Below, piece by piece: positions 1,621-38,692 of a stretch of DNA of 64,000 bases. The notes beneath the pieces were generated by a model. That model saw only the letters and a program-made list of their open reading frames with translations. It was not told the DNA's origin and did no database searches. Origin of the DNA: Escherichia coli (GTDB lineage: Bacteria; Pseudomonadota; Gammaproteobacteria; Enterobacterales; Enterobacteriaceae); the NCBI RefSeq assembly GCF_024223415.1, contig NZ_CP100500.1; one strand, 5' to 3'. The translations under genes and the position numbers were made by a program. Position 1 is the stretch's first letter, and each line of letters opens with the position of its first letter.

Positions 1621-2865
1621 ATGTCTGAAAATGCCACCTTTTCCCCTGAACAGTCATGCCGCAAACATACCGCTGCGCCGGCGAAATCCCTGAGTTTCGT
1701 TGAAGGTGTGTCGATGATTGTCGGCACGAACATTGGCGCAGGTGTACTGTCTGTGGCCTACGCCTCCGGTAAAGCCGGTTTTCTGCCGCTGTTATTCTGG
1801 CTCGTGCTGGTCGGGAGCCTGACCACCATAACCATGCTGTATGTGGCTGAATCGACTTTACGTACCCGTAAACATTTGCAGTTAAGCGGATTGTCACATC
1901 GTTATGTCGGACGCTGTGGCGCGCTGATAATGTTCCTTTCCGTCTGTGTGAACAGCGTTGGCGCTCTGATTGCATATATGAGCGGAAGCGGTAAGCTGCT
2001 GCACTCACTGCTGGGCATTTCTCCAGCTCTGGGTAGCATGTTATTTTTCATTCCCGCCGCAGGAGTGCTTTATCTCGGCCTGAAAGCGATAGGTCGCGGG
2101 GAAAAATTTATAAGTATCGGTATGGTGGTGATGCTCACTATCCTTATCGTCGCCACAATGCTGAAAGACACAACACAAATGCGTTACCTGCTGGATGGCA
2201 ACTGGCTGTATATGGTGCCGGTCTTTAACGTTGTGGCATTTTGTTTCTCGGCACAATATATTGTTCCGGAAATGGCGCGCGGTTTTTCTGATAAACCAGA
2301 AAAATTGCCGAAGGCAATTATGGTCGGGATGGGAATTACCTTCATTCTGCTGGCTCTGGTGCCTATGTCTGTCATAGCACTCAACGGGCTGGACAATATT
2401 TCTGATGTGGCGACCATTTCCTGGGGACGTGCGCTGGGTGAGTGGGCCTTTTTCTCTGCGAATCTGTTTGCTCTTTGCGCGATGCTGACTTCTTACTGGG
2501 GACTTGGTGGCAGTTTTCTGACCAATATCGTTGACCAGTTCAGTCCGGGCGATGACAGCCAGCCTCTAAGACGCTTTCTGTTACTGCTGATCGTTGTCAT
2601 ACCACCGTTTATTCTTGCTTATAGCGGCATGGTATCGTTTGTAAATGCGCTTTATTTTGCGGGGGTCTTCAGTGGCGTGGTCCTGTCTGTTATGCCCATT
2701 CTGATACTGAAAGGGGCGCGCCAGCACGGTGACCTGACACCTGGCTGGACGTGTCCTGCACTCATTATTCATCCGCTACTCCAGAGCTTTATTGTGTTGT
2801 TATATCTCTGTAGCGCTGCGTATGCAATTGCTTCTGCGCTGGGCCATCTCCCGGCAGGCTGGTAA
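1621..2865 (+). CDS. Amino acid permease, hydroxy/aromatic amino acid permease family (TyrP/Mtr/TnaB-like)
   Basis: Polytopic hydrophobic protein with the TyrP-like N-terminal motif (IVGTNIGAGVL); start chosen at internal ATG 1621. Confidence 0.7.
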   Translation: MSENATFSPEQSCRKHTAAPAKSLSFVEGVSMIVGTNIGAGVLSVAYASGKAGFLPLLFWLVLVGSLTTITMLYVAESTLRTRKHLQLSGLSHRYVGRCGALIMFLSVCVNSVGALIAYMSGSGKLLHSLLGISPALGSMLFFIPAAGVLYLGLKAIGRGEKFISIGMVVMLTILIVATMLKDTTQMRYLLDGNWLYMVPVFNVVAFCFSAQYIVPEMARGFSDKPEKLPKAIMVGMGITFILLALVPMSVIALNGLDNISDVATISWGRALGEWAFFSANLFALCAMLTSYWGLGGSFLTNIVDQFSPGDDSQPLRRFLLLLIVVIPPFILAYSGMVSFVNALYFAGVFSGVVLSVMPILILKGARQHGDLTPGWTCPALIIHPLLQSFIVLLYLCSAAYAIASALGHLPAGW

Positions 2866-3424
2866 ACATAAAGGAAAAGTATTATCGACCTCCTGTATAT
2901 TAAAATTGAGTTAGCATAGTGACGAACAGATTTGGCAGGGCATATGTAGCCTGCTCCCCTCCGGGGTTTAAAGCTCTTTTTGTAAGCAACGGGCGCATGT
3001 GCTGACCCACTCATTTGACATCATGACGGTTTATCTGTACGTCACCATAACGCATTTTATAAGAATGTTTTTTGTCCCATAACAGGTGTCCACTGGTTAA
3101 AAAGGTGGGCACCTGTCGTTACCAGTACTGGCTTAATTGCTACATACGGCTGTCGGTTTACGCTTACTTTCAACTTGTGGGTAAGGGGATGGAGTGCGAA
3201 TAAATGATCGAGCTTCGTGCGAATCACTGATCGAATACATCGGAATGCGCACTCTGAAGCAAACTTAAAACATCTCTGCACCATTCCATGCACGCATAAA
3301 AGTCATTCCGGCATTTCATTTTACATAACATAAACAGAACAATAATAATTACAACAACATTCACACCAGCATTACAGAACACACTCTGTCTGTTGTTATC
3401 ACCAGAAATATCAGGAGTATTTAA

Positions 3425-4591
3425 ATGATTATTTCCTCACCTGCAGATTACAGGGACGCCGCAAAACACAGACTGCCACGCTTTCTTTTTGATTACATAG
3501 ACGGCGGGGCTGTTACTGAAAAAACCATGCATGAAAATATGACCTCTTTATCTTCGGTCAGCCTCCGGCAGCAGGTGCTTTGTGGCGCCGGAGCCCCCGA
3601 ACTGAACACCACCATCCTTGATTCAGAATGGGCCATGCCTGTTGCTCTGGGCCCCGTCGGTGCCACTGGCATGTACGCCCGTCGTGGAGAGGTGCAGGCA
3701 GCCAGAGCGGCCTCAGCAATGAACATCCCTTATACTCTCTCAACCGTCTCCGTCTGCCCGATCGAAGAGGTCGCCGGACACGCTGACGGGCAACTGTGGT
3801 CCCAGTTATACGTCCTTCGGGATCGTGGTTATATGCAAAACGCACTTGAACGCGCCTGGACTGCAGGTATGAAAACCCTGGTATTTACCGTCGACATGCC
3901 TGTGCCGGGCTCCCGGTACAGGGATAACCATTCAGGGATGTCAGGTCCCCACGCCACACTGCGTCAGTATCTTCAGGCCGTTCTTCATCCCCGCTGGGCG
4001 CTGGATGTGGGAATTGCCGGTCGTCCTCTGTCATTTGGTAACATCGAAACGTACACCGGGCATAAAATGTCGATGGATGACTATATGGGCTTTATCAGCA
4101 AAAACTTTGATCCCTCTATTGCATGGAACGATCTCGAATGGATCCGTGATGGCTGGAAAGGTAAACTGATAATAAAAGGGATCCTTGTTCCGGAAGATGC
4201 AAAAAATGCTGTACGGCTTGGCGCGGATGGCATCATTGTCTCCAATCATGGCGGACGTCAGCTTGATGGTGCCATCCCCACGGCCAGGGCATTACCGGCG
4301 ATAGCAGATGCAGTGGGTGATGACATCACGGTACTGGCGGATTCAGGTATTCGTTCCGGTGTGGATGTGGTCCGGATGCTTGCTCTGGGGGCAAAAGGTG
4401 TGCTGCTGGGAAGAGCGTATATTTACGCACTTGCCGCTGCGGGAAAAAAAGGCGTTGAGCACCTGCTCAGACTTTATGCTGAAGATATGAAAGTCACCAT
4501 GACGCTGATCGGCGCTTCTTCTCCCGCTGATATCAGCAGCAGAAATCTTGAATATCTGGAAAAAGAATTCTCCCGACATTCATCATCCTGA
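3425..4591 (+). CDS. FMN-dependent alpha-hydroxy-acid dehydrogenase, L-lactate dehydrogenase (LldD) paralogue
   Basis: Collinear with E. coli LldD as recalled (…[12 protein letters not shown]…, …[11 protein letters not shown]…). Confidence 0.85.
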
Positions 4592-7483: not shown

Positions 7484-7658
7484 AATATTTGTTGTGCCGG
7501 ATCTTTTCCGGCATGATGATGTGTGTTACAGCCTCTGGCTTATAACACTCTGCAGTAGTGCTGGCTGACGTGACTGCCGGATATTCTGGTTTTCTTAAGT
7601 CACGGATATACTGACGACAGGGTTTCACATTCAATATTCAACTGACAGGTATGTTTAT

Positions 7659-8951
7659 ATGGCACACCGCTACCTGACACGACAGGATCACAGGACCTTA
7701 TCTCTGGCTGCGCTCGGAGGCGCACTTGAATTCTATGACTTCATCATTTTTGTTTTTTTCGCCGCCGTCATTGCTGAGCTCTTTTTCCCGCCGGATATAC
7801 CGGAATGGCTCCGTCAGCTCCAGGCATTTGGTATATTTGCTGCCGGGTACCTGGCACGACCTCTCGGCGGAATAATTCTGGCCCATTTTGGCGATATACT
7901 TGGGCGAAAGAAAATGTTCACCCTGAGTATTTTGCTTATGGCAGTACCGACACTTGTTATCGGTATTTTGCCAACCTACAGCTCTGTGGGTACCCTGGCT
8001 CCTGTGCTGCTTCTTCTGATGCGTCTGCTTCAGGGCGCAGCGATTGGCGGTGAAGTGCCCGGTGCCTGGGTTTTTGTTGCTGAGCATGTACCGGAGCGCC
8101 GAACCGGTATTGCATGCGGAACACTGACAGCAGGTTTAACCGCCGGGATCCTGCTTGGTTCAGTGGTTGCCACACTTGTCAATTCAGTATTGTCTCAGGA
8201 TATTGTTTACGATTACGGCTGGCGATTCCCCTTCCTTCTTGGTGGTGTTTTTGGCCTGGCAGCAATGTACCTGCGCCGCTGGCTGGAGGAAACTCCGGTA
8301 TTTCTGGAAATGAAAGCCAGAAAAAAACTGGCTCAGGAATTACCGGTAAAAGCTGTCGTTTTAAGACATAAAAAAGCTGTTGTGATTTCCATGCTGTTGA
8401 CATGGCTGATATCCGCAGGGATTATTGTGGTGATACTGATGGCACCGGTCTGGTTACAGAAACAGTATGACTTTTCGCCGACAGTCACCTTACAGGCTAA
8501 CAGCATTGCAACTATTATGCTGAGTCTGGGATGCCTGCTGGCCGGTATGGCCATTGATTCTTTTGGTGCCGGAAAAACCTTTATATCAGGCAGTATTCTG
8601 CTTGGATGTTCAGGATGGCTGTTCTATCACACTGTCGGTGAGTATCCTGAAATGTTGTTCTGGCTGTATGGGCTAGCGGGATTCAGTGTGGGCATTGTCG
8701 GGGCCGTCCCTTATGTTCTCGTGCGTATTTTCCCCGCAGAGGTCAGGTTTACCGGCATTTCATTCTCTTACAATGTCGCTTATGCAGTGGTGGGGGGACT
8801 GACTCCTGTTGTGGTCACGATGTTAACGGAAATCTCCCCGATGGCTCCAGCATGGTATGTTATGCTGTTATCACTTGTGGGATCAGGACTGGGAATATGG
8901 TTCTGCAGGGATCCCCGTCTTTTTATCTGTCACGCAGACAAAGACAAATAA
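7659..8951 (+). CDS. MFS transporter, metabolite:H+ symporter family
   Basis: 12-TM-like hydrophobic profile with MFS motifs (GDILGRKK). Confidence 0.8.
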   Translation: MAHRYLTRQDHRTLSLAALGGALEFYDFIIFVFFAAVIAELFFPPDIPEWLRQLQAFGIFAAGYLARPLGGIILAHFGDILGRKKMFTLSILLMAVPTLVIGILPTYSSVGTLAPVLLLLMRLLQGAAIGGEVPGAWVFVAEHVPERRTGIACGTLTAGLTAGILLGSVVATLVNSVLSQDIVYDYGWRFPFLLGGVFGLAAMYLRRWLEETPVFLEMKARKKLAQELPVKAVVLRHKKAVVISMLLTWLISAGIIVVILMAPVWLQKQYDFSPTVTLQANSIATIMLSLGCLLAGMAIDSFGAGKTFISGSILLGCSGWLFYHTVGEYPEMLFWLYGLAGFSVGIVGAVPYVLVRIFPAEVRFTGISFSYNVAYAVVGGLTPVVVTMLTEISPMAPAWYVMLLSLVGSGLGIWFCRDPRLFICHADKDK

Positions 8952-27603: not shown

Positions 27604-29955
27604 TCAGAATAACCCCCCTTCACCATCAGCCACAATCCTGTATCCCATCGCCTTATAACCCCGCTGGCGTTTATCCCACATTCTGAGCAGCACAGGATAC
27701 GCTTTATCCACAAAATCAATGATCCTGACATCGCTTTTACCGGTATACTGTCTGTGCAGACGCCCTGCATACTGCTGTAACGTCCCTTTCCATGACACCG
27801 GCATCGCCAGAATCAGCGTATCCAGCGGTGGGTGGTCAAATCCCTCACCAATAAGTTTACCGGTTGACAACAGAATGCGGGGAGAATCCTGAGGAAGCGC
27901 ATTTAACTCAGAAATCAGCATTGTACGCTTTTTTTTCGATAACCGGCCATGAAGCACAAAGGGTGACAGGTTCAGTGAATGCATTACTGATGCTATATCA
28001 TCCAGATGCTCTTTTCGTTCAGTCAGTACCAGAACTTTACGTCCCTGCGCGAATGCCTTCATGGCTTCTTCAGCTATCGCCACAGTCCTGTCATGATCAA
28101 GCGCAATTTCTCTGAAAATATCCTGGATCCCCGCATCCGATGGTAAATGTCCGGATGTAAAACGGAAACGGAGCTGCACTTCCAGATTATGCGGACTTTC
28201 CTTCGGGCTGGCCGCTGTGTGACGAAGGGCACCACAGTACATAAAAATGATGGGATGCAGACCATCCCGTCGGACAGGCGTTGCCGTCAGTCCCAAAAGA
28301 TATCTGGCATTCGTTTCCTTCAGAACAGCAGAAAATGAAAACGCTCCAGCATGATGGCACTCATCAACTATGACTTGCCCGTAATTCCTGACCACAGGTG
28401 CAACTTTGCCATGCCTGAACAGAGACTGCACAACAGCAATATCAATATTGCCAGAGGGGTTATGTTTGCCCCCTCCGATAATACCAATACCGTCACTGGT
28501 CTGCAGAAATACCCCAAGCCGCTCCTGCCATTGCTTTAATAACTCAGTCCGGTGTACCAGTACAAGTGTATTAACTCTCCGTCGTGCAATCACAGCCGCG
28601 GCGGTAACCGTCTTACCAAAAGCCGTTGGCGCACAAAGTACACCAGAATCATAACGGAGCAATACCGAAACAGCCTCTTCCTGATCCGCTCTGAGGTTTC
28701 CCGTGAACACAGCATGACATTCTGTACCTGCAAATCGTTCATCGATGATTTCTGCAGCAATATTGTTGTCACTGAGGAAGGATAATGCGCTGTCCAGACA
28801 TCCACGGGGTAACGCAATGTGTTGCGGATAATTTTCCGCACAACCTGTAACCCGGGGTTTATTCCAGACAGACATTCTCATGGCCTGAGCCTTATAAAAC
28901 ACAGGATTAGGAAACGCAGCCAGTCGAATAAGCCGGTTGGCCAGCGGCTGAGGTAATTGCGCTTTTTCGAAATAGATCTGGTTTGCCAGCGTGATTCTCA
29001 GCGGCTCAGCAACAGAAACCGTCAGTTTGTTTTCTGATGATGTTTTCCACGGCGTGCTCAGGTCTTCGTCGGTAAAGTTCACATCCAGTGGATGAATACT
29101 TCCTGTAGCCCGTAATATTGTCGGTTCTATATCCTGCACATTCATCGGGATCACCGATGCCAGGAATGCCCACTGATCAGGATAAGGCTGAAAATTCATA
29201 TCAACAAAAACACTGCCTCCCGATTCACGCGGTCTTTTTTGCAGAGGTAACGCGATGAGATTGCCGAATCCCCCTTTTGGCATGGTATCCTGATTAGGAA
29301 ATAATCGGTCATAAGAACTCAACCGCAGTTGCCGGGAACGGCTACACGTATGGCTGATAACGGCTGTCCCCAGTCGGCGTGCATCACGGGCCGAAACCCG
29401 GGAAGCAAAAAATATCCAGACATGCGCCCCCTGACGTGAGCGGGATATTTCCAGCGCTGCGGGTATCCCCAGCTCATCACAGGATCGCATGAATGCGGAT
29501 GCATCCTTCTGCCATTCAGCATCATCAAAATCAACAGCCAGAAAATAACAGGAATCGTCTTCCAGCAGCGGATATACCCCGACTGTATGGTAGCCTGCGA
29601 GATGACGGTAAATGACAGGATCGGATACAGGTAGCAACTGACGGTGTGCGCAGTCACCGCATTTTATCCCGGGCTTACCGCAGATTCCCGGCTTCCATTC
29701 GTTAGCACAGGCCGGCGAATACCCTGATTTACCACTGACCTGACTTTCCCAGCGAAGGGCCCATACATCATCACGCCCACGAAACAACCGACGAAATAAT
29801 GAAACCTTCTGTTCAGCAGATAATGCGGAAACATGATGTACAGAACGCTGCGGTTTACGTCGCCATTCAATCCCGTGAGCTTCAAGTAATGAGGCCAGAC
29901 GGGCATTTTCTGCCCTCAGTGCAGCTAATTCGTCGTTATCAGATTGACACACCAT
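27604..29955 (-). CDS. Putative primase-polymerase / SF2 (DEAD/DEAH-type) helicase fusion protein
   Basis: C-terminal helicase motifs I AFGKT, II DECHH, III TAT, VI QYAGRLHR; N-terminal zinc ribbon CGKPGIKCGDCAHRQ and acidic DFDD motif. Confidence 0.75.
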   Translation of the reverse strand: MVCQSDNDELAALRAENARLASLLEAHGIEWRRKPQRSVHHVSALSAEQKVSLFRRLFRGRDDVWALRWESQVSGKSGYSPACANEWKPGICGKPGIKCGDCAHRQLLPVSDPVIYRHLAGYHTVGVYPLLEDDSCYFLAVDFDDAEWQKDASAFMRSCDELGIPAALEISRSRQGAHVWIFFASRVSARDARRLGTAVISHTCSRSRQLRLSSYDRLFPNQDTMPKGGFGNLIALPLQKRPRESGGSVFVDMNFQPYPDQWAFLASVIPMNVQDIEPTILRATGSIHPLDVNFTDEDLSTPWKTSSENKLTVSVAEPLRITLANQIYFEKAQLPQPLANRLIRLAAFPNPVFYKAQAMRMSVWNKPRVTGCAENYPQHIALPRGCLDSALSFLSDNNIAAEIIDERFAGTECHAVFTGNLRADQEEAVSVLLRYDSGVLCAPTAFGKTVTAAAVIARRRVNTLVLVHRTELLKQWQERLGVFLQTSDGIGIIGGGKHNPSGNIDIAVVQSLFRHGKVAPVVRNYGQVIVDECHHAGAFSFSAVLKETNARYLLGLTATPVRRDGLHPIIFMYCGALRHTAASPKESPHNLEVQLRFRFTSGHLPSDAGIQDIFREIALDHDRTVAIAEEAMKAFAQGRKVLVLTERKEHLDDIASVMHSLNLSPFVLHGRLSKKKRTMLISELNALPQDSPRILLSTGKLIGEGFDHPPLDTLILAMPVSWKGTLQQYAGRLHRQYTGKSDVRIIDFVDKAYPVLLRMWDKRQRGYKAMGYRIVADGEGGLF

Positions 29956-30115: not shown

Positions 30116-30679
30116 TCAGTTGTGTCGCGGTCGGCCGCGGTTACTTTTTTCAGGTAGTCTGCTACGCATCAGAATAATACCGTGTTCTTTCTGATCCTGT
30201 TTAGCCAGGTAGCTAAGGGCGTAACGTAAGTCATCTACCGCAGATTTATTACTATAGCGAATTACGTGATCAATACGCACCGGGTATTTATCTTTAGCCC
30301 GGCACAGGTGAAAATAACCATCCCCTTCCGTGATCCGCCTCCAGATATCTCCCAGCAGCCTGGATATCCGGTAAGATTTCTTGTGCCGTTGTCCATCCAG
30401 ATAGCCGATAAAATGAATATGAAGTCCCTTGTTTTGTGTATATTCCATAACCCAGTAATATCCTGCCAGAATCGTTTGGGTTTCGCTAAGTAAGCGCTGC
30501 ATCTCAATACACATACTGTGCTTACAGGAATGACCGAAACTGGGCGTGTCTTTCCTGTAGGCAAAATCAATTCTGAAAGGTAACAGTTTAGAAAAACGTT
30601 GAAACATACCTTCCATGTGTTTATTCACGTCTTTCAGAATCGTGAAATTCATTTCGTAATTGGGATTGGCATTGTACAT
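30116..30679 (-). CDS. HUH-motif protein, inovirus Gp2-like / YfjJ-YagK family
   Basis: GLHIHFIGYLD HUH-type motif; alignable with ORF 14155-14748. Confidence 0.65.
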   Translation of the reverse strand: MYNANPNYEMNFTILKDVNKHMEGMFQRFSKLLPFRIDFAYRKDTPSFGHSCKHSMCIEMQRLLSETQTILAGYYWVMEYTQNKGLHIHFIGYLDGQRHKKSYRISRLLGDIWRRITEGDGYFHLCRAKDKYPVRIDHVIRYSNKSAVDDLRYALSYLAKQDQKEHGIILMRSRLPEKSNRGRPRHN

Positions 30680-31628: not shown

Positions 31629-33062
31629 TCAGAGGTCAAAGTTAGGTGCGACATACCACGTTTTATCGTCCATAAGCTGTACAACTCTGTTTTGCTCATA
31701 CAGTAAATCCAGTAACCAGTTGAGTTTATCTTTTTTACGGAAACGATTCGGGCCACGCTGTAAAATGTCATTTTTTTTCATACAGGGAACCCCCTTCTCA
31801 ATGCAATAGCTTTTTATCCAGTTAAAAAGTTCAAGCTCCTCCGGAATGAGTCGCATAGTTACGGTCTGGGCAGAGTTTTCAAACGTTAACGGACTGGATA
31901 ACCGAATATACTCATTACCGTACCATATTGCTAATTCTCTCGCCATTTCAGCTGTGTAGGGGGAAATGTCACCTTCCTCACCGCTGACATGGTGAATAAG
32001 CCCAGCCAGTCTTGCCATATACTCTGCATTTTTAGCAGCATATTCTCTGAAGTCTCTTAAAGGCCCCAGAACCGCCATCTTCGATTCCACATCGTTGTAA
32101 TAGTCCGTCCAGATTCTGGCTGCCTGAGGAGAAAAGTGAAGGCAACGTCGCTCTCCCCTCATAGCCAGGCTTTCATCAATAAGTTCATTGATCCTCTTGT
32201 CAAATAACTCCTGATACTGTGATGAATAATTATCTCCGGTTATTATCCTTGTCCCCTGCGTTGATGTTGGTTGACACATCAAAAACCGTGCATGATGTCC
32301 TGATGTCTTCACCAGTTCTTTTTTTCGTGTACAAAAACCTTTGTGGTAAACATCAGGCTGAATCATCACCGATATCGTCAGTCTTGGGTCCTTCAAAAAA
32401 ATCCCGGGAGATGATTTCCTGTCGATGAAAAGGGAACTACCATCCCATAAAGAGTTAAGTATTCCCAGTTTGCTCATTGCCCGGCTGTCAAAAATCACCC
32501 CGCCCTCACTGGATACAAGAGCAAAAGAGCGATTGCTGTCGGAATAATATTTAAACATTCCCTCTGTCGTCGTATCATTAAAAATTGTCCGATTTATCTG
32601 CGGTGGAACAGGACAACTATTCAGATGCATTCTGAGCTCTGATTCTGTTGCTTCATACTCTTTACCGGCACGAATCTCTTTATGAAGTTTTGACTCCAGT
32701 GCCTTTTGTTTTTGCTCCCATATTTCCTTTTCTGCACTGTAATTCTCAACCAGTTTCGCATATTCTTCCGCAAGAGTTTCATCCCTGAGATAAAATGCTT
32801 TCATAAAAACTTTATCCACGGTCGTTTTCCTTTCGCCGGAATCAGCCAGAATCATAGCGTAAAGATTAGAGGGGCCACGTAAATTACCAGGTCTGCACAC
32901 ATCAATCTGATTCTGACAGGCAACTGACACCGCTGTTAATGCTGCTGTTGCAACCAGAGCCCCGGGCGCCTGTGTATTTTGCTGAGTTTCAATTATTGCA
33001 TTTCTCACCAGAGATGTTAATGCATTTATCGGAAAAGGGGCTTCCTGTTCAAGTAAGGACAT
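31629..33062 (-). CDS. DUF3987-type protein (YfjI-like)
   Basis: Position and composition match CP4-57 YfjI; start set at internal ATG 33062 (GAGG RBS); hairpin 31576-31606 downstream. Confidence 0.7.
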   Translation of the reverse strand: MSLLEQEAPFPINALTSLVRNAIIETQQNTQAPGALVATAALTAVSVACQNQIDVCRPGNLRGPSNLYAMILADSGERKTTVDKVFMKAFYLRDETLAEEYAKLVENYSAEKEIWEQKQKALESKLHKEIRAGKEYEATESELRMHLNSCPVPPQINRTIFNDTTTEGMFKYYSDSNRSFALVSSEGGVIFDSRAMSKLGILNSLWDGSSLFIDRKSSPGIFLKDPRLTISVMIQPDVYHKGFCTRKKELVKTSGHHARFLMCQPTSTQGTRIITGDNYSSQYQELFDKRINELIDESLAMRGERRCLHFSPQAARIWTDYYNDVESKMAVLGPLRDFREYAAKNAEYMARLAGLIHHVSGEEGDISPYTAEMARELAIWYGNEYIRLSSPLTFENSAQTVTMRLIPEELELFNWIKSYCIEKGVPCMKKNDILQRGPNRFRKKDKLNWLLDLLYEQNRVVQLMDDKTWYVAPNFDL

Positions 33063-33321
33063 AAATACCTCAATTTTAGTTAATAAATCAGTAAAGTAGC
33101 AGATATTCCCGCTATAATAGCCAAAATAGCTGCTATGCATAGCCGATATGTTCTGAAAAATACAGTAATCGGGCATACCTGATGTTGAACAAAACGATAA
33201 GGTTGATTCAATTCAGCCTGTATTATTAGCTACGTAACATCATTCACATTGCTCACTCCTGACATCTTCTGATGATTATTTCAACGACGCCTTATTCATG
33301 GTCGTTTTCCTTTTTCATGAA

Positions 33322-33543
33322 TCAAAAAACAACCATAGTGTAAATATTCATGGGTTCACGAAAATTATCTAATCTGCACACATTAGTCAGATCCTGACGG
33401 GAAATTGACATATCTGTTAATACTGGCATTGCCATCAGAGTCAGAGGTACTTGTTTATTATATTGAGCTTTAATCATTGCCTTTCCCATCATTAATGATC
33501 GCGCATATACTGAATACGGCGTATCCGGTTTTATGTAAGACAT
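33322..33543 (-). pseudogene. Truncated tandem duplicate of the YfjI-like N-terminus (73 aa)
   Basis: DNA and protein alignable with the first ~90 codons of 31629-33062 (…VCR..N.R.P.N.Y.M…), then frame break and stop. Confidence 0.5.
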
Positions 33544-33718
33544 AAATGCTTCCTTTGTCGTAATGCGTGTCGGTTATAGCAGCAATTACCGCTACAATAG
33601 CGACAATAGCTGCTCTTTCAACAATGAATGCTGGAAATTCTGTTTATCAATTAAACTTCTGGCTAAATTATTCTTATGCTTCTTTTTCCTCCTGAGGTGA
33701 TCACGTGATGACAAAAAC

Positions 33719-34015
33719 TTATCTGCTCATGGTCATATCTGAAGAAAGCGTATGTCGCACTTCGTCATTAACACCTTTTACTGCTGATCTGGCTGGTACA
33801 GTATGTAAAGTAAGCCATTCGTCAATAGCTGATGAACGCCAGCCCACAGAACCACTACCAAGACGTACCGGCCTTGGGAAGGTTGCATCGTAATATTTCG
33901 ATAACGGATTCATTTTTTCGTAAATTGTCGAACGAGATATACCTAACAATTGGCTCAGTTCAGGCATCCGTAAGATGCGTGAAGGAGTCCAGCAGTGTCC
34001 GGATTGATCTGGCAT
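33719..34015 (-). CDS. alpA: AlpA-family phage regulatory protein
   Basis: …ILRMPELSQLLGISRSTIYEKMNPLSKYYDATFPRPVRLGSGSVGWRSSAIDEWL… matches the AlpA fold; start at internal ATG. Confidence 0.7.
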   Translation of the reverse strand: MPDQSGHCWTPSRILRMPELSQLLGISRSTIYEKMNPLSKYYDATFPRPVRLGSGSVGWRSSAIDEWLTLHTVPARSAVKGVNDEVRHTLSSDMTMSR

Positions 34016-34223
34016 TTTATCCCCCTTAGTGTGGTGAACTGTCGTTACAGTTTGTATTCCTCGGGTAAATTTTTCTGCGTAAAAAAATGGGTTGAGCAAA
34101 AAGACAATAAACAACTAAAAATCAATATGATAGGAAACAACAGCATTATTGTTATTTTACTTTTCCCTTATCGCTGTCGATTCTCATTATCATTCATGGC
34201 AAAAAAACAGTAAAAGAGGCCCT

Positions 34224-34971
34224 AGTAATGACTCCGGTCAGTAGTACATGTGCTTCGATAAATGAACCAATGGCTTTTCGTTAATTTCCACGGAGCGTGA
34301 AAAGCAAATCGTTTTCAGGGATGGGAGTTTGATGTGAGTACGAAGTATCAGATTGTTGCGCTCAATGCGCCGGGTAAATATCCTGCCGACAGGATGCTTA
34401 TCCTGTGGTACTTCTCTGGTATAACTGCACCAGTTTTCACTGGTTATCATGCCTGAGGAGAATGGCTTCAGAAGTTCCGGCAACTCACTACATGTTTCAT
34501 CAGTACGAGGACCAAAAGTGTAAGCCCGCACACCGCCAGATTTGGTGTTATACGCATACCAGAGCCAGTGCTGACGAGCTTTGTTTCCGACAAAGCTCCA
34601 TTGTTCATCAAGTTCGCATATAAGCGCCACATCGGCACTGGCGACTGGAGATGTGGTTACTTTGCATGGTGAGCGTTTTTTAAAGTGCGAATGACTGTGT
34701 TGATACCCACCTTCAGTGTTCTGGAGGTATCGCGAACCCCGGTTCCGTTATGAGCCATTTCAACGATTTGCTCTTTAACACTTGGTTTTCGGGCTTCGCA
34801 GGTGTAATTCAGTTGAAATACACGTTTGCAGGAGCGGCACTGGAAACAGTGCTGTGACCGTGACGGTACACTTTATCGGAATTACAGCGGGGACAATGTA
34901 CGGTAACTGTTGCCATATGGACTCCGGATACCAACAGAATACCCCATTAATCTGCCCCCGGAAGTCATCCC
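34224..34971 (-). mobile_element. IS1-family insertion sequence, divergent copy with frameshifted insA
   Basis: Terminus AGTAATGACTCC at 34224-34235; InsA-like start at 34916; A6C frameshift motif before insB'. Confidence 0.7.
34238..34630 (-). CDS. insB: IS1 transposase InsB' segment
   Basis: ICELDEQWSFVGNKARQHWLWYAYN…RTHIKLPSLKTICFSRSVEINEK matches IS1 InsB. Confidence 0.75.
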   Translation of the reverse strand: MALICELDEQWSFVGNKARQHWLWYAYNTKSGGVRAYTFGPRTDETCSELPELLKPFSSGMITSENWCSYTREVPQDKHPVGRIFTRRIERNNLILRTHIKLPSLKTICFSRSVEINEKPLVHLSKHMYY

Positions 34972-35111: not shown

Positions 35112-36938
35112 ATGTACAATTTTATCACTATAATGTATGATGTCTTTTCATGTTTTGGTGTTCTGGCTAAAAACCAGAATATCCGTGACATCCGAAATAT
35201 TAAAAACTTTTCCTCACATCAACATTCACTGGCCGACATGTTTGATGAATTAACATACATTATTGACAAAGAACAGGTACTGAGCACAGAACAACGAAAA
35301 GTTATATTCAGGAGATATGAAGATCTGTATGTTAAACTCATGCACTATTCTGTTTTTACAGACAAAACACATCAAATAATAAAACAAAAATATTTTAATG
35401 ATGTTGTTCCAATGATTCTCGCGCTCGACATCAGGAACACATATCGCCCGGATAATGAGATGGCATTTTACTATCATATCCATTCTTTTCTCACTCAGAT
35501 ACCGGATAATGAGGATGATATATATCATGCTGTAAGGACATATATGAGAAATTATGTTAAGTTATGTTTATCCGGATACACACCAACGAATGCGCATTTC
35601 AAAAATATCTTTGATGGAGTATATGAATTCATTCGTAATATTCGCAAAAACAGTACACCCGGAAAAACAAAACTTATTGCAGCTATCAACATATGCAAAG
35701 AAGCCTGTAAATATCTGCTTTGTTTAAGTGATAAAGACAAGGAAATAATATTTTCCGACTTAGATAAAATTCAGGTTGCATGTTATTCTCTCACTATATT
35801 ACTGGCTTTCGAAAGACGAACATCATTAACAAGTAACCTGGCAACTTTATATAAAATGCTGATAAACGAAAGAGAAGTTTCAGAATATGAATGTCAGCAA
35901 TTATATTTAATCAACCCAATAGATGTAATGAATATACTGAACAAATACATATATTACTTCCCTGGTGAGAATTCACCTCTTTATACACTGAAAATTGACA
36001 GTGCATTATCGTGGGATGCCATTGATGCAATACGAGACTATAGTATTTCTGATATTTATCTTTATCCTGAACAAAAAACAATAAATTGTATCGTTGAGAT
36101 TGAAAACATTGTCTTTGGCGGTTACATTTATACATTGAGCGACGGCGTCACATTACAAAATATGGAAAACACTTTAAAAGATTCCTCATGTCATTATGTA
36201 TTAAATGGCTATACAGAATTTGTTAACTGTTTAAGACAACTTACTTCAGGAAAGACTGAAAGTGTTCAGCGTACCATTAATAAACTGGAGTACGAAAAAT
36301 TACCTTTTGGATTTATCATTGCCGCGTTTGCTATATTAAAAATAGCATTTAAGATAAAGTTCAGTAAAAATCATGTAAATACCAGGGCATTATTAAATGA
36401 CATCAGTTATTTTATGACTTATCAGGGCGAGTCCATTAATCTTATTTCACTGGATCATGAATATCCAGAGTTCCGTCTTCAAAATGACACAAATACATAT
36501 TTATTGGGAAGGATGATATTTCTATATAACTCAATGATCTATAAATTCAGAAACTGCCAGGAACATGAAACCAATAACATTAACTCAGTTATGATAAATA
36601 ACCTATTACAGGAAGTTGATATAGCCCTTGGTAAAATAAATGACATTATAGACAGCAGAAACATATCAGTCCCCCATGAACTGGCAAATATTCTTATCCA
36701 CGAAAAAATACTTACAACACGTGAAAAAAAAGGAAACCTGATAAGCCTGTTTGATGGATTCACTTTATTCCATTGTGTTGGAATGATAACCTTTCTTATC
36801 CATTACCTCAGAACTCCTGAAGAAAAAGTAGAAAATGTATTTATGTTATATGGTGCAGATAAAAACAATAAACTACGCAGAAGACTGATTTATGATGCAC
36901 TAGAAATAATTCAGTCTCAGCAGGAGATGAAACCTTAA
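35112..36938 (+). CDS. Hypothetical protein, 608 aa, AT-rich orphan (no recognisable domain)
   Basis: AAGGAG six nt upstream of the ATG; composition far more AT-rich than flanks; hairpin 36962-36986 downstream. Confidence 0.8.
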   Translation: MYNFITIMYDVFSCFGVLAKNQNIRDIRNIKNFSSHQHSLADMFDELTYIIDKEQVLSTEQRKVIFRRYEDLYVKLMHYSVFTDKTHQIIKQKYFNDVVPMILALDIRNTYRPDNEMAFYYHIHSFLTQIPDNEDDIYHAVRTYMRNYVKLCLSGYTPTNAHFKNIFDGVYEFIRNIRKNSTPGKTKLIAAINICKEACKYLLCLSDKDKEIIFSDLDKIQVACYSLTILLAFERRTSLTSNLATLYKMLINEREVSEYECQQLYLINPIDVMNILNKYIYYFPGENSPLYTLKIDSALSWDAIDAIRDYSISDIYLYPEQKTINCIVEIENIVFGGYIYTLSDGVTLQNMENTLKDSSCHYVLNGYTEFVNCLRQLTSGKTESVQRTINKLEYEKLPFGFIIAAFAILKIAFKIKFSKNHVNTRALLNDISYFMTYQGESINLISLDHEYPEFRLQNDTNTYLLGRMIFLYNSMIYKFRNCQEHETNNINSVMINNLLQEVDIALGKINDIIDSRNISVPHELANILIHEKILTTREKKGNLISLFDGFTLFHCVGMITFLIHYLRTPEEKVENVFMLYGADKNNKLRRRLIYDALEIIQSQQEMKP

Positions 36939-37122: not shown

Positions 37123-38325
37123 TTATTTATTCATAATCTGAGACATCACATAATCCGCCCATGCCTGCATCATCGGTACACGCTGCTCCAGTAGATCAGT
37201 ACGATGATATGCCGCCTCAACCTTATTTTTCAGCGTATGAGCGAGCGCCCTTTCAGCCAGATCCCGCGAATACCCCTGCTCACTACACCAGTCCCTGAAT
37301 GTTGAACGAAAACCATGTGCCGTGGCGACTCGCCCCGGAATATCACTGACGGCTTTCTTTTTACGCAGAAAACTGGTCAACACCATATCTGAAAGGATCT
37401 GCTGCTTTCTGGGTGAAGGAAACACCAGTTCATCATGCAGACCACGTATATTTTCCAGAATGTAAATAGCCTGTCGGGATAAAGGAACACGATGCTGTAC
37501 CCTGGCTTTCATTCTTTCTGCTGGTATCGTCCATATCTGCTTATGAAAATCAATTTCAGTCCAGCGCATTCCCCTGGCTTCACCCGAGCGGGTTGCTGTA
37601 AGTATCACCATTAATAACAATGCGCGGGTAACATTATAGGGTTCATCGGTATACACACTGGTCGCCACAAAAAGCGGTAACTGCCTCCATGGCATTGCGG
37701 GTTGGTGTTCATCACGTCCTCTTGTCTGCTGGGGAAGCAAATGATCAACCACATCCACAGGATTTGCCACACAAAAACCATGTGCCCATCCCCACTGCAT
37801 AACAACATGAATGCGCTGTTTAACCCGGCTTGCCGTTTCTGACAAAGTTAACCAGACTGGCCGCAGTGTTTCTGCCACGTCCGCAGCCGTAATCGAATCC
37901 AGCGTTTTCGCTCCCAGTTGAGGAAAGGCGTAATTCTCAAGCGTCGATAACCACTGCCGGACATGCTTTGGATTTTCCCATCCAGGAGACAGTTCTGCAT
38001 GTACACGTCTGGCTGCATCGGCAAATGTTGGGATAACAACTTTTTCAGCCTCAGCCTTTTTAATCTCCAGAGGATCATCACCAGCAGCAAGTTGCTCTCG
38101 CATTATCCGGGCAGTACGTGCAGCTTCAGCAATGCTGATCTCAGGGTAAGTTCCCAATCCAGCATTACGCCTTTTTTGTGTCACCGGACTTACATAACGA
38201 AAAACCCATTTACCCCGACCCTTTACTGAAGAAGGATGAAGGGTCAGTCCTGTAATTCCCCCATGGGGCAATGGTTTGTCATCAGGTTTGATATGCCTTG
38301 CTTTCGTATCCGTCAATACTGCCAT
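37123..38325 (-). CDS. int: Tyrosine-type site-specific integrase (P4/CP4-57 IntA-like)
   Basis: IntA-like N-terminus and C-terminal catalytic region (…HGFRSTFRDW…, …LAHTLKNKVEAAYHR…). Confidence 0.9.
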   Translation of the reverse strand: MAVLTDTKARHIKPDDKPLPHGGITGLTLHPSSVKGRGKWVFRYVSPVTQKRRNAGLGTYPEISIAEAARTARIMREQLAAGDDPLEIKKAEAEKVVIPTFADAARRVHAELSPGWENPKHVRQWLSTLENYAFPQLGAKTLDSITAADVAETLRPVWLTLSETASRVKQRIHVVMQWGWAHGFCVANPVDVVDHLLPQQTRGRDEHQPAMPWRQLPLFVATSVYTDEPYNVTRALLLMVILTATRSGEARGMRWTEIDFHKQIWTIPAERMKARVQHRVPLSRQAIYILENIRGLHDELVFPSPRKQQILSDMVLTSFLRKKKAVSDIPGRVATAHGFRSTFRDWCSEQGYSRDLAERALAHTLKNKVEAAYHRTDLLEQRVPMMQAWADYVMSQIMNK

Positions 38326-38485: not shown

Positions 38486-38499
38486 CCCCCTCACCGCCA
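38486..38499 (+). other. 3' remnant of tRNA-Ser (serW-type att core)
   Basis: CCCCCTCACCGCCA matches the last 14 nt of E. coli tRNA-Ser(GGA); the remainder of the tRNA is absent upstream. Confidence 0.5.
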
Positions 38500-38543: not shown

Positions 38544-38692
38544 CATTTTATCTGCCTGTACGGCAGTGAACATGGTGGGCGGGTGGAGTATGTTACCAGT
38601 GAATTTCTAAGCTGCCTGTACGGCAGTGAACGTTTGCTGCAACCGCTAGCCAAGACGGTAGGTTTTTCTAAGCTGCCTGTACGGCAGTGAAC
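38544..38692 (-). CRISPR. Orphan type I-F CRISPR mini-array (3 repeats, 2 spacers, no cas genes in window)
   Basis: Two exact copies of TTTCTAAGCTGCCTGTACGGCAGTGAAC (38604-38631, 38665-38692) plus a degenerate copy ending at 38571; spacers of 32-33 bp. Confidence 0.8.

Follow-up and report, generated by a model that had tools for sequence, protein, structure and literature searches.

A truncated 5' copy of yfjI between alpA and yfjI in Escherichia coli islands is very probably the remnant of an ancient partial tandem duplication

In the 64-kb stretch of DNA analysed here (the window), an open reading frame of 73 codons lies between an alpA-like regulator gene and an intact gene of the yfjI family. 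Its position and its resemblance to the gene downstream raise the question whether it is a small gene in its own right or a relic, and from which sequence it is derived. The ORF together with the homologous sequence around it is called the fragment below, and the coordinates of all features are listed in Table 1.

Table 1. Features of the alpA-yfjI locus and of the surrounding island in the window
Feature	Position	Strand	Basis or remark
Intact yfjI-family gene, 477 aa, DUF3987 helicase-type domain	31629..33062	-	Pfam PF13148
73-codon ORF	33322..33543	-	ATG 33543, stop TGA 33324-33322; still-open part of the yfjI 5' pseudogene fragment
Out-of-frame fragment continuation	33276..33321	-	Walker-A-like codon remnant; ends at a TAA (33278-33276) common to all fragment lineages
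Junction filler, ~60 nt	33213..33275	-	No detectable yfjI or alpA homology
Left end of repeat copy 2	33135..33212	-	Homologous to the last ~35 nt of thrW-type alpA and the alpA-yfjI intergenic region
Palindromic GCTATT-repeat element, copy 1, AGCAGCTATTGTCGCTATTGTAGCGGTAATTGCTGCTA	33577..33614	-	5' of the fragment ATG
Palindromic GCTATT-repeat element, copy 2	33097..33134	-	5' of intact yfjI
alpA-like helix-turn-helix regulator gene, 98-aa serX/serW subtype	33719..34015	-	Directly upstream of the fragment
IS1 remnant (frameshifted insA/insB)	34238..34934	-	Between the 608-aa hypothetical gene and alpA; ORF translations
Tyrosine integrase of the island	37123..38325	-	NCBIfam integrase-domain match; located correspondingly in E. 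coli islands
14-bp island direct repeat TGGCGGTGAGGGGG (3' end of serW/serX)	38486..38499	-	Island boundary beside clpA; single exact match
yfjJ/YagK-like (inovirus Gp2-type) gene	30116..30679	-	Downstream of yfjI; weak Pfam REP_ORF2-G2P and YagK_YfjJ_C matches
TOTE-type archaeo-eukaryotic primase fused to helicase	27604..29955	-	Pfam AEP-TOTE, E = 5.8e-99, and ResIII, Helicase_C

The intact gene product matches the DUF3987 profile with E = 3.9e-85 (286.7 bits at a cut-off of 27) over profile positions 1-363 of 364, which makes it a member of this family, and its E. coli homologues are annotated as 'YfjI family protein' with 477 aa. In agreement with the E. coli annotations and gene calls, the ATG at 33062 is most likely its start, while the in-frame ATG at 33176 given by the ORF finder is probably not used. 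The Walker-A-like motif LADSGERKTT is located at YfjI residues ~72-81. Walker A and B motifs are present in DUF3987 proteins, and helicase activity (5' to 3') is known only for a PriCT-DUF3987 protein of another organism (PMC11724360). No sequence relative of YfjI was found in the PDB, and no NCBIfam model matches YfjI, the fragment, AlpA or the YfjJ-like protein.

The integrase and the repeat of a tRNA-Ser 3' end at the clpA-serW site identify the surrounding element as an island of the serW/serX P4-integrase type. The 14-bp direct repeat was described for OI-43/OI-48 (PMC3064760). The flanking clpA/clpS region shares 98-99% identity with E. coli, and the 64-kb window contains neither the second direct repeat nor the tRNA itself. 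The alpA-like gene (Pfam Phage_AlpA, E = 4.6e-19) shares 97-99% identity with its homologues in E. coli islands, a frameshifted IS1 pseudogene is annotated at the matching position in EC332, CFT073 and HS13-1, and the yfjJ/YagK-like gene is annotated likewise in the E. coli loci.

According to the first-pass annotation, the short ORF matches the beginning of the downstream gene and then runs into a frameshift and a stop, and a pairwise alignment was proposed there as a check. This alignment reveals ~345 nt (33625-33280, minus strand) which are homologous, at ~70% identity, to 33145-32800, i.e. to the 5' end of the intact gene. The homologous stretch comprises the palindromic upstream element, a ribosome-binding site, the ATG at 33543 and ~88 codons; it begins ~85 nt 5' of the ATG in both copies, which are arranged head-to-tail and shifted by 480-481 nt. 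Their local alignment reaches a score of 116, far above those of 500 dinucleotide shuffles (mean 11.1, sd 1.3, maximum 16; z ~78). At the DNA level the fragment and its own gene share about 65-70% identity (70% in 332 ungapped columns), and at the protein level the 73-aa ORF, the counterpart of yfjI codons 1 to ~72, shows 35% identity to YfjI over 72 aa (BLASTP, E = 2e-11). Thus the locus does contain a truncated yfjI-type 5' copy in tandem with the intact gene.

The reading frame of the fragment is lost by a 1-nt insertion near 33327. When the frame is corrected, an in-frame TGA is found to replace the Gly codon of the Walker-A-like LADSGERKTT of the gene, and in the out-of-frame continuation AAAGGAAAACGACCATGAATAAG is aligned to AAAGGAAAACGACCGTGGATAAA of the gene. 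In every fragment the homology stops at ..GTGAAATAAT, and ~90 of the 477 codons are kept. Since the fragment breaks off within the DUF3987 domain, at its Walker-A loop, it does not represent a separate domain. The 73-aa ORF reaches 20.7 bits with the Pfam DUF3987 profile, below the cut-off of 27, and covers profile positions 1-42 of 364, so that it does not qualify as a functional member of the family. A ribosome-binding site, AGGAAG, is located 6 nt before the ATG; with this site and 73 open codons, a peptide may be made from the ORF in the window lineage.

A comparison with homologous elements, also proposed at the outset, revealed that the fragment is recurrent. Of the 5426 complete E. coli genomes, 1335, approximately a quarter, have the layout of fragment, spacer and gene with an identical 3' junction, and the carrier islands include the CFT073 serX island, the O157 islands OI-43/48/SpLE1 and thrW islands. 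The exact 73-aa ORF was found in 487 blocks of a public assembly index, and among the matches listed, six places all show the arrangement of alpA, 73-aa ORF and 477-aa gene. Head-to-tail copies at a 480-nt offset could suggest that the 5' end of the adjacent gene was duplicated in tandem only recently, or that the arrangement is an artefact of assembly. However, an artefact is ruled out by more than 1300 independently finished genomes with this arrangement, the copies are just ~65-70% identical, and the fragment is nearer to the fragments of other islands than to its own gene, which leaves this explanation with practically no chance.

The clustering of the sequences makes the latter point in numbers. 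Identity is 74-99% among fragments from different islands and 82-100% among genes, while between fragments and genes it amounts to 65-76%; this fragment-to-gene divergence of 24-35% is above the diversity inside either group. The window fragment shares 74-83% identity with fragments elsewhere and 65% with its own gene, i.e. its closest relative is not the adjacent gene. The view that the ORF duplicates the present 5' end of its neighbour has to be revised in this respect: it is the remnant of an old paralogue, which shares 65-76% identity with any intact gene and has one junction across serW/serX and thrW islands.

The proposal that the ORF could be a decoy or a small regulatory peptide is contradicted by independent disabling lesions in each lineage. 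The window fragment has one additional nucleotide and a TGA. The serX fragment of the E. coli type is interrupted by a TGA at codon 15 and has lost 10 nt by deletion, and most E. coli carriers have a stop at codon 15; the TUM1886 fragment has a TAA at codon 15, one additional nucleotide and a 12-nt deletion, and the M505 fragment has a TGA in Walker A. In PGAP annotations, the fragment appears as ORFs of 38, 49 or 65 aa, or as a pseudogene 'missing C-terminus'. Among fragments dN/dS is 0.7-2.3, and the corresponding codons of the genes give 0.25-0.49, the estimates being based on only ~70-78 codons per pair and blurred by recombination. Truncation, disabling mutations and a neutral evolution unlike that of a functional paralogue are thus combined in the fragment. 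That the open frame with its good ribosome-binding site in the window lineage, whose exact sequence is so widespread in the assembly index, is translated into a small protein with a function, for instance as an N-terminal decoy or as a regulator of YfjI, is very unlikely, given that the orthologues are broken at differing places, the fragment dN/dS is ~1 and the sequence ends at the Walker-A loop within a domain. Judged from its sequence, the 73-codon ORF is a dead pseudogene scar, neither a new gene nor a regulator, and 'recombination scar', one of the terms used in the first-pass annotation, is a fair description.

How the scar arose is indicated by the spacer. The two copies do not abut directly, since ~145 nt separate the end of the fragment homology from the second palindrome. 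The 268-nt stretch from the fragment end to the start of yfjI is colinear, at 72-75%, with every fragment-bearing locus. The junction filler within this stretch is likewise colinear among all E. coli loci that bear a fragment, with a conservation of 72-75%. Local alignments of this filler (~60-65 nt) to yfjI and alpA were no better than those of shuffles, and a continuation into yfjI codons 91-113, as it seemed by eye, was rejected (shuffle p 0.3-0.9). Since the filler matches neither yfjI nor alpA, either the duplication was not clean or the junction has decayed beyond recognition. We also considered the spacer as a mobile or repeated sequence and rejected this, because in E. coli genomes it is found in this context only.

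The second part of the spacer, the left end of repeat copy 2, contains a remnant of the 3' end of a thrW-type alpA. In E. coli loci the local score of this remnant is 13-20 with a shuffle maximum of 14 (p <= 0.004); in the window's own sequence, which is colinear with the E. coli loci, the match is weaker (p 0.02-0.08). The remnant emerged against thrW-type alpA junctions only. An origin from the window's own serX-type alpA was rejected, the local alignment to its 3' end and intergenic region being at shuffle level, and in a tblastn search of nine AlpA proteins against 33063-33330 the best E was about 2. An nhmmer profile of the thrW-type alpA and intergenic region gave no match to the spacers, which we attribute to the short sequences, and therefore shuffle-tested pairwise alignments were used instead. 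Head-to-tail copies, in which the left end of copy 2 matches the sequence upstream of copy 1, are the pattern of a tandem duplication; in the E. coli loci this match is significant, in the window itself it is weak, and a junction filler of ~60-65 nt takes the place of direct abutment. The alpA 3' remnant ahead of the intact gene indicates an ancient tandem duplication of ~440 nt, and we consider it very probable that one such partial duplication left the 73-codon ORF as its upstream copy, which is now decaying.

We infer the following mechanism and order of events. The duplicated unit would have run from the final ~35 nt of a thrW-type alpA across the intergenic region between alpA and yfjI, including the GCTATT palindrome, into the first ~90 codons of yfjI, and would have ended shortly after the Walker-A-like motif in the DUF3987 helicase domain. 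The duplication would have left ~60 nt of unassignable sequence at the junction and created the order alpA, truncated yfjI', alpA 3' remnant and complete yfjI. The upstream partial copy, unable to make a helicase, would have drifted neutrally since then, and full-length yfjI copies would occasionally have patched it by gene conversion or crossover. Later, the block consisting of palindrome, fragment, spacer and yfjI may have been joined to another integrase/alpA arm by recombination at or near the conserved palindrome; its present homes are the serW/serX-type islands (OI-43/48, SpLE1, CFT073 serX and the serW island of the window) and the thrW islands.

The proposed patching relies on mosaic identity profiles and on identical runs of 34-47 nt common to fragment and gene. 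In GCA_002229815, a UTAK-4-type alpA and yfjI 5' end (88-100% identity) is joined to a fragment-type 3' end. The homology boundary and the crossover points between islands lie at the palindrome or within the fragment. This is clear sequence evidence for gene conversion or crossover between the fragment and full-length copies. The earlier idea of a diversifying exchange at the N-terminus is therefore supported in part, as far as the exchange is concerned; however, the N-terminus of the intact gene (dN/dS 0.33-0.49, compared to 0.16-0.21 in the remainder) is under relaxed purifying and not under positive selection.

The same topology, with an alpA 3' remnant before copy 2, is expected if the locus is the scar of a recombination or deletion between two diverged tandem islands, by which the yfjI of island 1 was broken at codon ~90 and joined to the alpA 3' end of island 2. 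The fragment would then never have been a copy from the lineage of the neighbouring gene. Both the fragment-to-gene divergence, which exceeds the diversity within the groups, and the recombination of islands with each other inside this segment are in line with this alternative. However, an intact gene of the fragment lineage was not found in the 5426 E. coli genomes, and plasmids and phages contained no closer intact gene of this type. In species-representative genomes, one peptide pattern detected 13 loci, all of the CP4-57 type. An exhaustive search of 1.8 billion protein representatives yielded a best full-length protein with 43% identity, in a collection in which clustering at 50% could hide a close lineage. 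A protein word-index search returned short proteins only, a weak negative since ordinary full-length YfjI was also missing from its list. The fragment-type N-terminus reads MSYIKPD... Furthermore, the fragment and the gene stand at nearly the same distance from the CP4-57 outgroup (49-52% and 53-56% identity, respectively), which fits an old in-situ copy evolving somewhat faster. We consider an inter-island origin possible but rather unlikely, and the same holds for its corollary that the fragment was never a copy from the lineage of its neighbour.

The palindrome stands out in the fragment. Its two 38-nt copies are 84% identical and are the only two matches in the 64-kb window (0 in 100 shuffles). 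The palindrome core was found once upstream of each yfjI-family gene examined, in more than eight genera and regardless of the AlpA subtype, and two copies occur only in fragment-bearing loci. As single-stranded DNA, the palindrome can form a 16-bp hairpin (z = -4.1). Between fragment lineages it differs at 0-3 of 38 positions, compared to ~25% in the pseudo-coding part, a contrast with low statistical power, since it is based on 38 nt and few independent lineages, and inflated by left-arm recombination. Within the fragment stretch, the palindrome alone looks constrained. Copy 1 overlaps with a promoter-like match (TTGAAA, 16 nt, TATTGT), and a 9-nt unit, GCTATTGTC, is expanded in HS13-1. Promoter matches in the scan were no more numerous than in shuffles, no Rfam family matched 33000-34200, and no terminator-like site was found on the minus strand from the fragment to the gene.

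We infer that the alpA-proximal copy may still work as a promoter or operator element. In an alternative reading, the duplication would have been retained for a DNA element, the alpA-proximal palindrome, perhaps together with a leader-like pseudo-ORF, serving as a second promoter, operator or origin-like site for yfjI or for island replication, and the fragment possibly being a homology anchor for arm exchange. The palindrome is conserved far better than the rest of the fragment and is kept upstream of every yfjI-family gene with any AlpA subtype; the promoter-like match over copy 1, the expansion in HS13-1 and the location of the homology boundary and crossovers at the palindrome or in the fragment also agree with retention for a DNA element. 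On the other hand, UTAK-4-type islands and CP4-57 have a single copy, the promoter matches are at shuffle level, and the conservation is subject to the limits given above, so that we regard such a retention as unlikely. In a broader version, the palindrome would be an undescribed cis element (operator, promoter or origin-like site) of the alpA-yfjI-yfjJ replication module, conserved throughout the Enterobacterales, control would be exerted from a dual site made up of its two copies at a distance of 480 bp, and the fragment would serve as an anchor for swapping the integrase/alpA arm against the replication/cargo arm. This version appears doubtful as well.

Several known loci can be compared with the one in the window. 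The short 'DUF3987 domain-containing protein' ORFs or pseudogenes which PGAP annotates between alpA and yfjI (WP_000579535.1 in CFT073 and EC332; a pseudogene in M505) are orthologous to the fragment, with the same position and junction. The flanking order in these E. coli islands is also the same: integrase, 605-608-aa hypothetical protein, IS1 pseudogene, alpA, fragment, yfjI and Gp2-like gene. The window allele is 74-83% identical to the alleles in complete RefSeq genomes and is open for 73 codons from the ancestral ATG, in contrast to the common E. coli form with the codon-15 stop and the 10-nt deletion. The tellurite-resistance islands OI-43/OI-48/SpLE1 and the CFT073 serX island, which have a P4-type integrase and use serW/serX, resemble the window in the integration arm, the 14-bp repeat and the serW site by clpA. 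Identity to them is ~88-91% over the module, and the cargo beyond the TOTE gene is unmatched there. The K-12 cryptic prophage CP4-57 has the gene order alpA-yfjI-yfjJ as in the window and a recognisable GCTATT palindrome upstream of yfjI. However, it has no fragment, its yfjI follows alpA after 128 nt, the 5' region of this yfjI is ~53-56% identical, and the prophage integrates at ssrA. Remnants of partial tandem duplications with gene conversion, as a general class, have in common with our locus the truncated upstream copy, its neutral decay and the patches homogenised with the intact paralogue; compared to this class, nothing is unusual here except the co-duplicated and apparently constrained palindrome.

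For biology at large the ORF is of little importance, as it is most probably a fossil. Its consequences are more specific. In well over a thousand E. coli genomes, the sequence would be annotated better as a pseudogene fragment than as a 'DUF3987 domain-containing' or hypothetical protein. The junction common to the islands can be used as a descent marker, which ties the thrW islands to the serW/serX islands (OI-43/48, SpLE1, CFT073 serX), and the mosaics reveal that islands exchange their arms by homologous recombination in this segment. Last, the palindrome upstream of every yfjI-family gene examined is a candidate control or origin site of the alpA-yfjI-yfjJ module.

The DNA upstream of yfjI contains a second, decayed copy of a yfjI-type 5' end. 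Window positions 33625-33280 align with 33145-32800 at an offset of 480-481 nt and with 70% identity over 332 columns; the local score is 116, while dinucleotide shuffles reached 11.1 +/- 1.3 (maximum 16), and the proteins share 35% identity (E = 2e-11). The homology begins approximately 85 nt 5' of both ATGs and includes a 38-nt palindromic element, which occurs just twice in the 64 kb. As start of yfjI, the ATG at 33062 is most likely the true one and not the upstream in-frame ATG at 33176, in agreement with E. coli annotations and gene calls. In the fragment, one extra base near 33327 breaks the reading frame, and after frame correction a TGA is found where the gene has the glycine codon of LADSGERKTT. 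The first-pass annotation, according to which a 73-aa ORF aligns with the beginning of the downstream gene and then runs into a frameshift and a stop, described the sequence accurately. The fragment breaks off within the DUF3987 domain, immediately past the Walker-A-like loop. DUF3987 proteins harbor Walker A/B motifs, and one of them was demonstrated to be a 5'->3' helicase with a primase-polymerase as its partner (PMC11724360). The fragment cannot act as a helicase and does not form a domain of its own.

Features of the island left arm, which is carried on the minus strand of the window, and of its boundary
Feature	Coordinates	Strand	Remark
Type I-F CRISPR repeats	38544-38692		three repeats (Rfam CRISPR-DR4; two 50 bits, one 29.7 bits)
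14-bp repeat TGGCGGTGAGGGGG	38486-38499		single occurrence in the window
Tyrosine integrase	38325-37123	minus	
608-aa ORF	35112-36938	plus	opposite to rest of arm; no family match (Pfam, NCBIfam)
IS1	34934-34238	minus	broken, frameshifted
alpA-like gene	34015-33719	minus	helix-turn-helix
Palindrome, copy 1	33614-33577		before fragment
73-codon ORF	33543-33322	minus	
Palindrome, copy 2	33134-33097		before yfjI
DUF3987/YfjI gene	33062-31629	minus	477 aa
YfjJ/Gp2-like gene	30679-30116	minus	
TOTE-type archaeo-eukaryotic primase fused to helicase	29955-27604	minus	intact

The 14-bp repeat is described as the direct repeat bordering O-islands 43 and 48 at serW/serX (PMC3064760), and clpA and clpS, which lie past it, are 98-99% identical to E. 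coli; the window is thus part of an E. coli chromosome that carries an island at serW. ARAGORN detected no tRNA gene here, and the repeat is present once, so the far end of the island and the serW gene lie beyond the window. The CRISPR repeats form a short orphan array at the island boundary, between the 14-bp repeat and clpA. All serX-type islands have a conserved counterpart of the 608-aa ORF (about 90-99% identity), named 'hypothetical protein' and located between the integrase and the IS1 remnant. Not only in the window but in every serX-type E. coli island examined (locus L001, 8271-8963; L003, 5719-6412; E. coli HS13-1, 2721-3413), the frameshifted remnant itself lies between the 605-608-aa gene and alpA, and therefore the integration arm was inherited already decayed. 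The TOTE primase-helicase gene is a frameshifted pseudogene in HS13-1 (7565-7900), and EC332 and CFT073 have no such gene at the corresponding position. To its left, the window (1-27000) harbors genes for a lactate permease, KdgT, aldehyde and alcohol dehydrogenases, a sigma-54 activator and an alanine symporter; a Mu-type transposase also lies on this side, and the region was unmatched by E. coli island homologues.

The 2.8-kb block that spans alpA through yfjI has matches at 80-90% identity in 1399 of 5426 complete E. coli genomes, and the fragment region is at least 80% covered in 1335 of the 5426. The carriers include CFT073 (island adjoining dgcT/pgaA), EC332 (phoH/efeB), O157:H7 strains, and islands which adjoin proA and tRNA-Thr (thrW) and whose 75-aa AlpA is unrelated. 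In the public assembly index, 487 blocks contain exactly this 73-aa sequence, and the six places displayed all have the identical layout of alpA, 73-aa ORF and 477-aa gene. Thus, the fragment is not an artefact, and it is not restricted to this genome. In contrast, it is absent from K-12 CP4-57 and from E. coli UTAK-4, where yfjI starts 95 nt after alpA.

The origin of the fragment can be approached from the sequence between the two copies. The 80 nt located 5' of the second palindrome are homologous to the last ~35 nt of thrW-type alpA and the alpA-yfjI intergenic region (local scores 13-20 in E. coli loci, shuffle maximum 14, p <= 0.004; p 0.02-0.08 for the more diverged sequence of the window), while local alignment of the ~60 nt at the junction against yfjI and alpA found no match. 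A tandem duplication of a unit reaching from inside alpA to approximately codon 90 of yfjI would result in a whole alpA, a truncated copy 1, and an alpA tail followed by copy 2 running into the complete gene; the observed topology is the one expected of such an event. In serX/serW islands the alpA tail is thrW-like although their own alpA is unrelated, and homology between serX-type and thrW-type loci begins at the first palindrome. From this, we infer a thrW-type island as the place where the duplication arose, with the block becoming joined to another integration arm later on. The same picture is predicted by a deletion between two tandem islands that had already diverged. We consider this less likely, as none of the collections searched contained an intact gene of the fragment lineage, and as fragment and gene are nearly equidistant from the CP4-57 outgroup.

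The partial tandem duplication is probably a single ancient event followed by decay. Between the end of the fragment and the beginning of yfjI, the window aligns colinearly (72-75%) with every fragment-bearing locus, and resemblance to the gene ends at the identical ..GTGAAATAAT in all fragments. When the 5' units are aligned jointly, identity is 74-99% among fragments, 65-76% between fragments and any gene, and 82-100% among genes. The lesions vary by lineage. The fragment of the window has an additional nucleotide and a TGA; in the common serX allele, codon 15 is TGA and 10 nt are deleted; in TUM1886, codon 15 is TAA, one nucleotide is inserted and 12 nt are deleted; and M505 has a TGA within the Walker-A codons. 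PGAP accordingly annotates either a short ORF (38, 49 or 65 aa) or a pseudogene labelled 'missing C-terminus'. Over codons 1-78, dN/dS is 0.7-2.3 for fragments and 0.25-0.49 for genes (0.16-0.21 in the remainder of yfjI). The feature is thus real, an ancient pseudogene remnant that is very widespread; among the earlier proposals, a recombination scar was right, while a small regulatory peptide or decoy is contradicted. In intact yfjI, codons 1-78 (32829-33062) have dN/dS of 0.33-0.49 versus 0.16-0.21 elsewhere, and dS is likewise higher there in most pairs, which hints at relaxed constraint or recombination. In one fragment-bearing locus (GCA_974496765.1, 3470-4856), yfjI is apparently broken too: the tblastn hits are split into several pieces and frames (40-70% identity) with no gene called, and both copies appear to be decaying.

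Exchange at the N-terminus, also proposed in the first-pass annotation, holds only insofar as gene conversion or crossover has taken place occasionally. The 'fragment' of GCA_002229815 consists of UTAK-4-type alpA and yfjI 5' end (88-100% identity) fused to a fragment-type 3' end, and the M505 fragment and full-length genes have identical stretches of 34-47 nt in common, a length reached in 0 of 2000 column permutations (p < 0.001). Between the window and EC332, identity is 93-99% in the left arm, 64-74% at 33415-33015 and 89-97% in the yfjI body. The dip roughly equals the synonymous-site divergence seen in the flanking genes (dS about 0.2-0.33), and this part therefore looks simply unconstrained.

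The one piece that looks constrained at the sequence level is the 38-nt element, an imperfect palindrome with the core GCTATTnnnGCTATTnnTAGCGGnAnTnGC. Copy 1, although located before a dead fragment, differs between lineages at 0-3 of 38 positions, compared to ~25% in the pseudo-coding part, and as single-stranded DNA it folds into a 16-bp hairpin (z = -4.1). Every yfjI-family gene examined (K-12, Dickeya, Pectobacterium, Mangrovibacter, Enterobacter, Siccibacter, Cedecea, Buttiauxella, Kosakonia and others) has one element upstream, whatever the AlpA subtype; none was found near integrase genes. In the comparison loci L009-L021, a near-perfect palindrome, CTGCTATTTCyGCTATTAATAGCGGAATAGC, lies about 50-90 nt 5' of CP4-57-type yfjI and is kept across genera, although the intergenic sequence on either side varies. 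It is a candidate cis element and may be a promoter, an operator or an origin-like site. In HS13-1 (about 4030-4080), the 9-nt unit GCTATTGTC upstream of the fragment has two extra tandem copies, an 18-nt insertion relative to all other loci that looks like iteron-type slippage. Features of this kind are well known, and this fragment is already, inconsistently, in the RefSeq annotation; only the conserved palindrome and its duplication merit being followed further.
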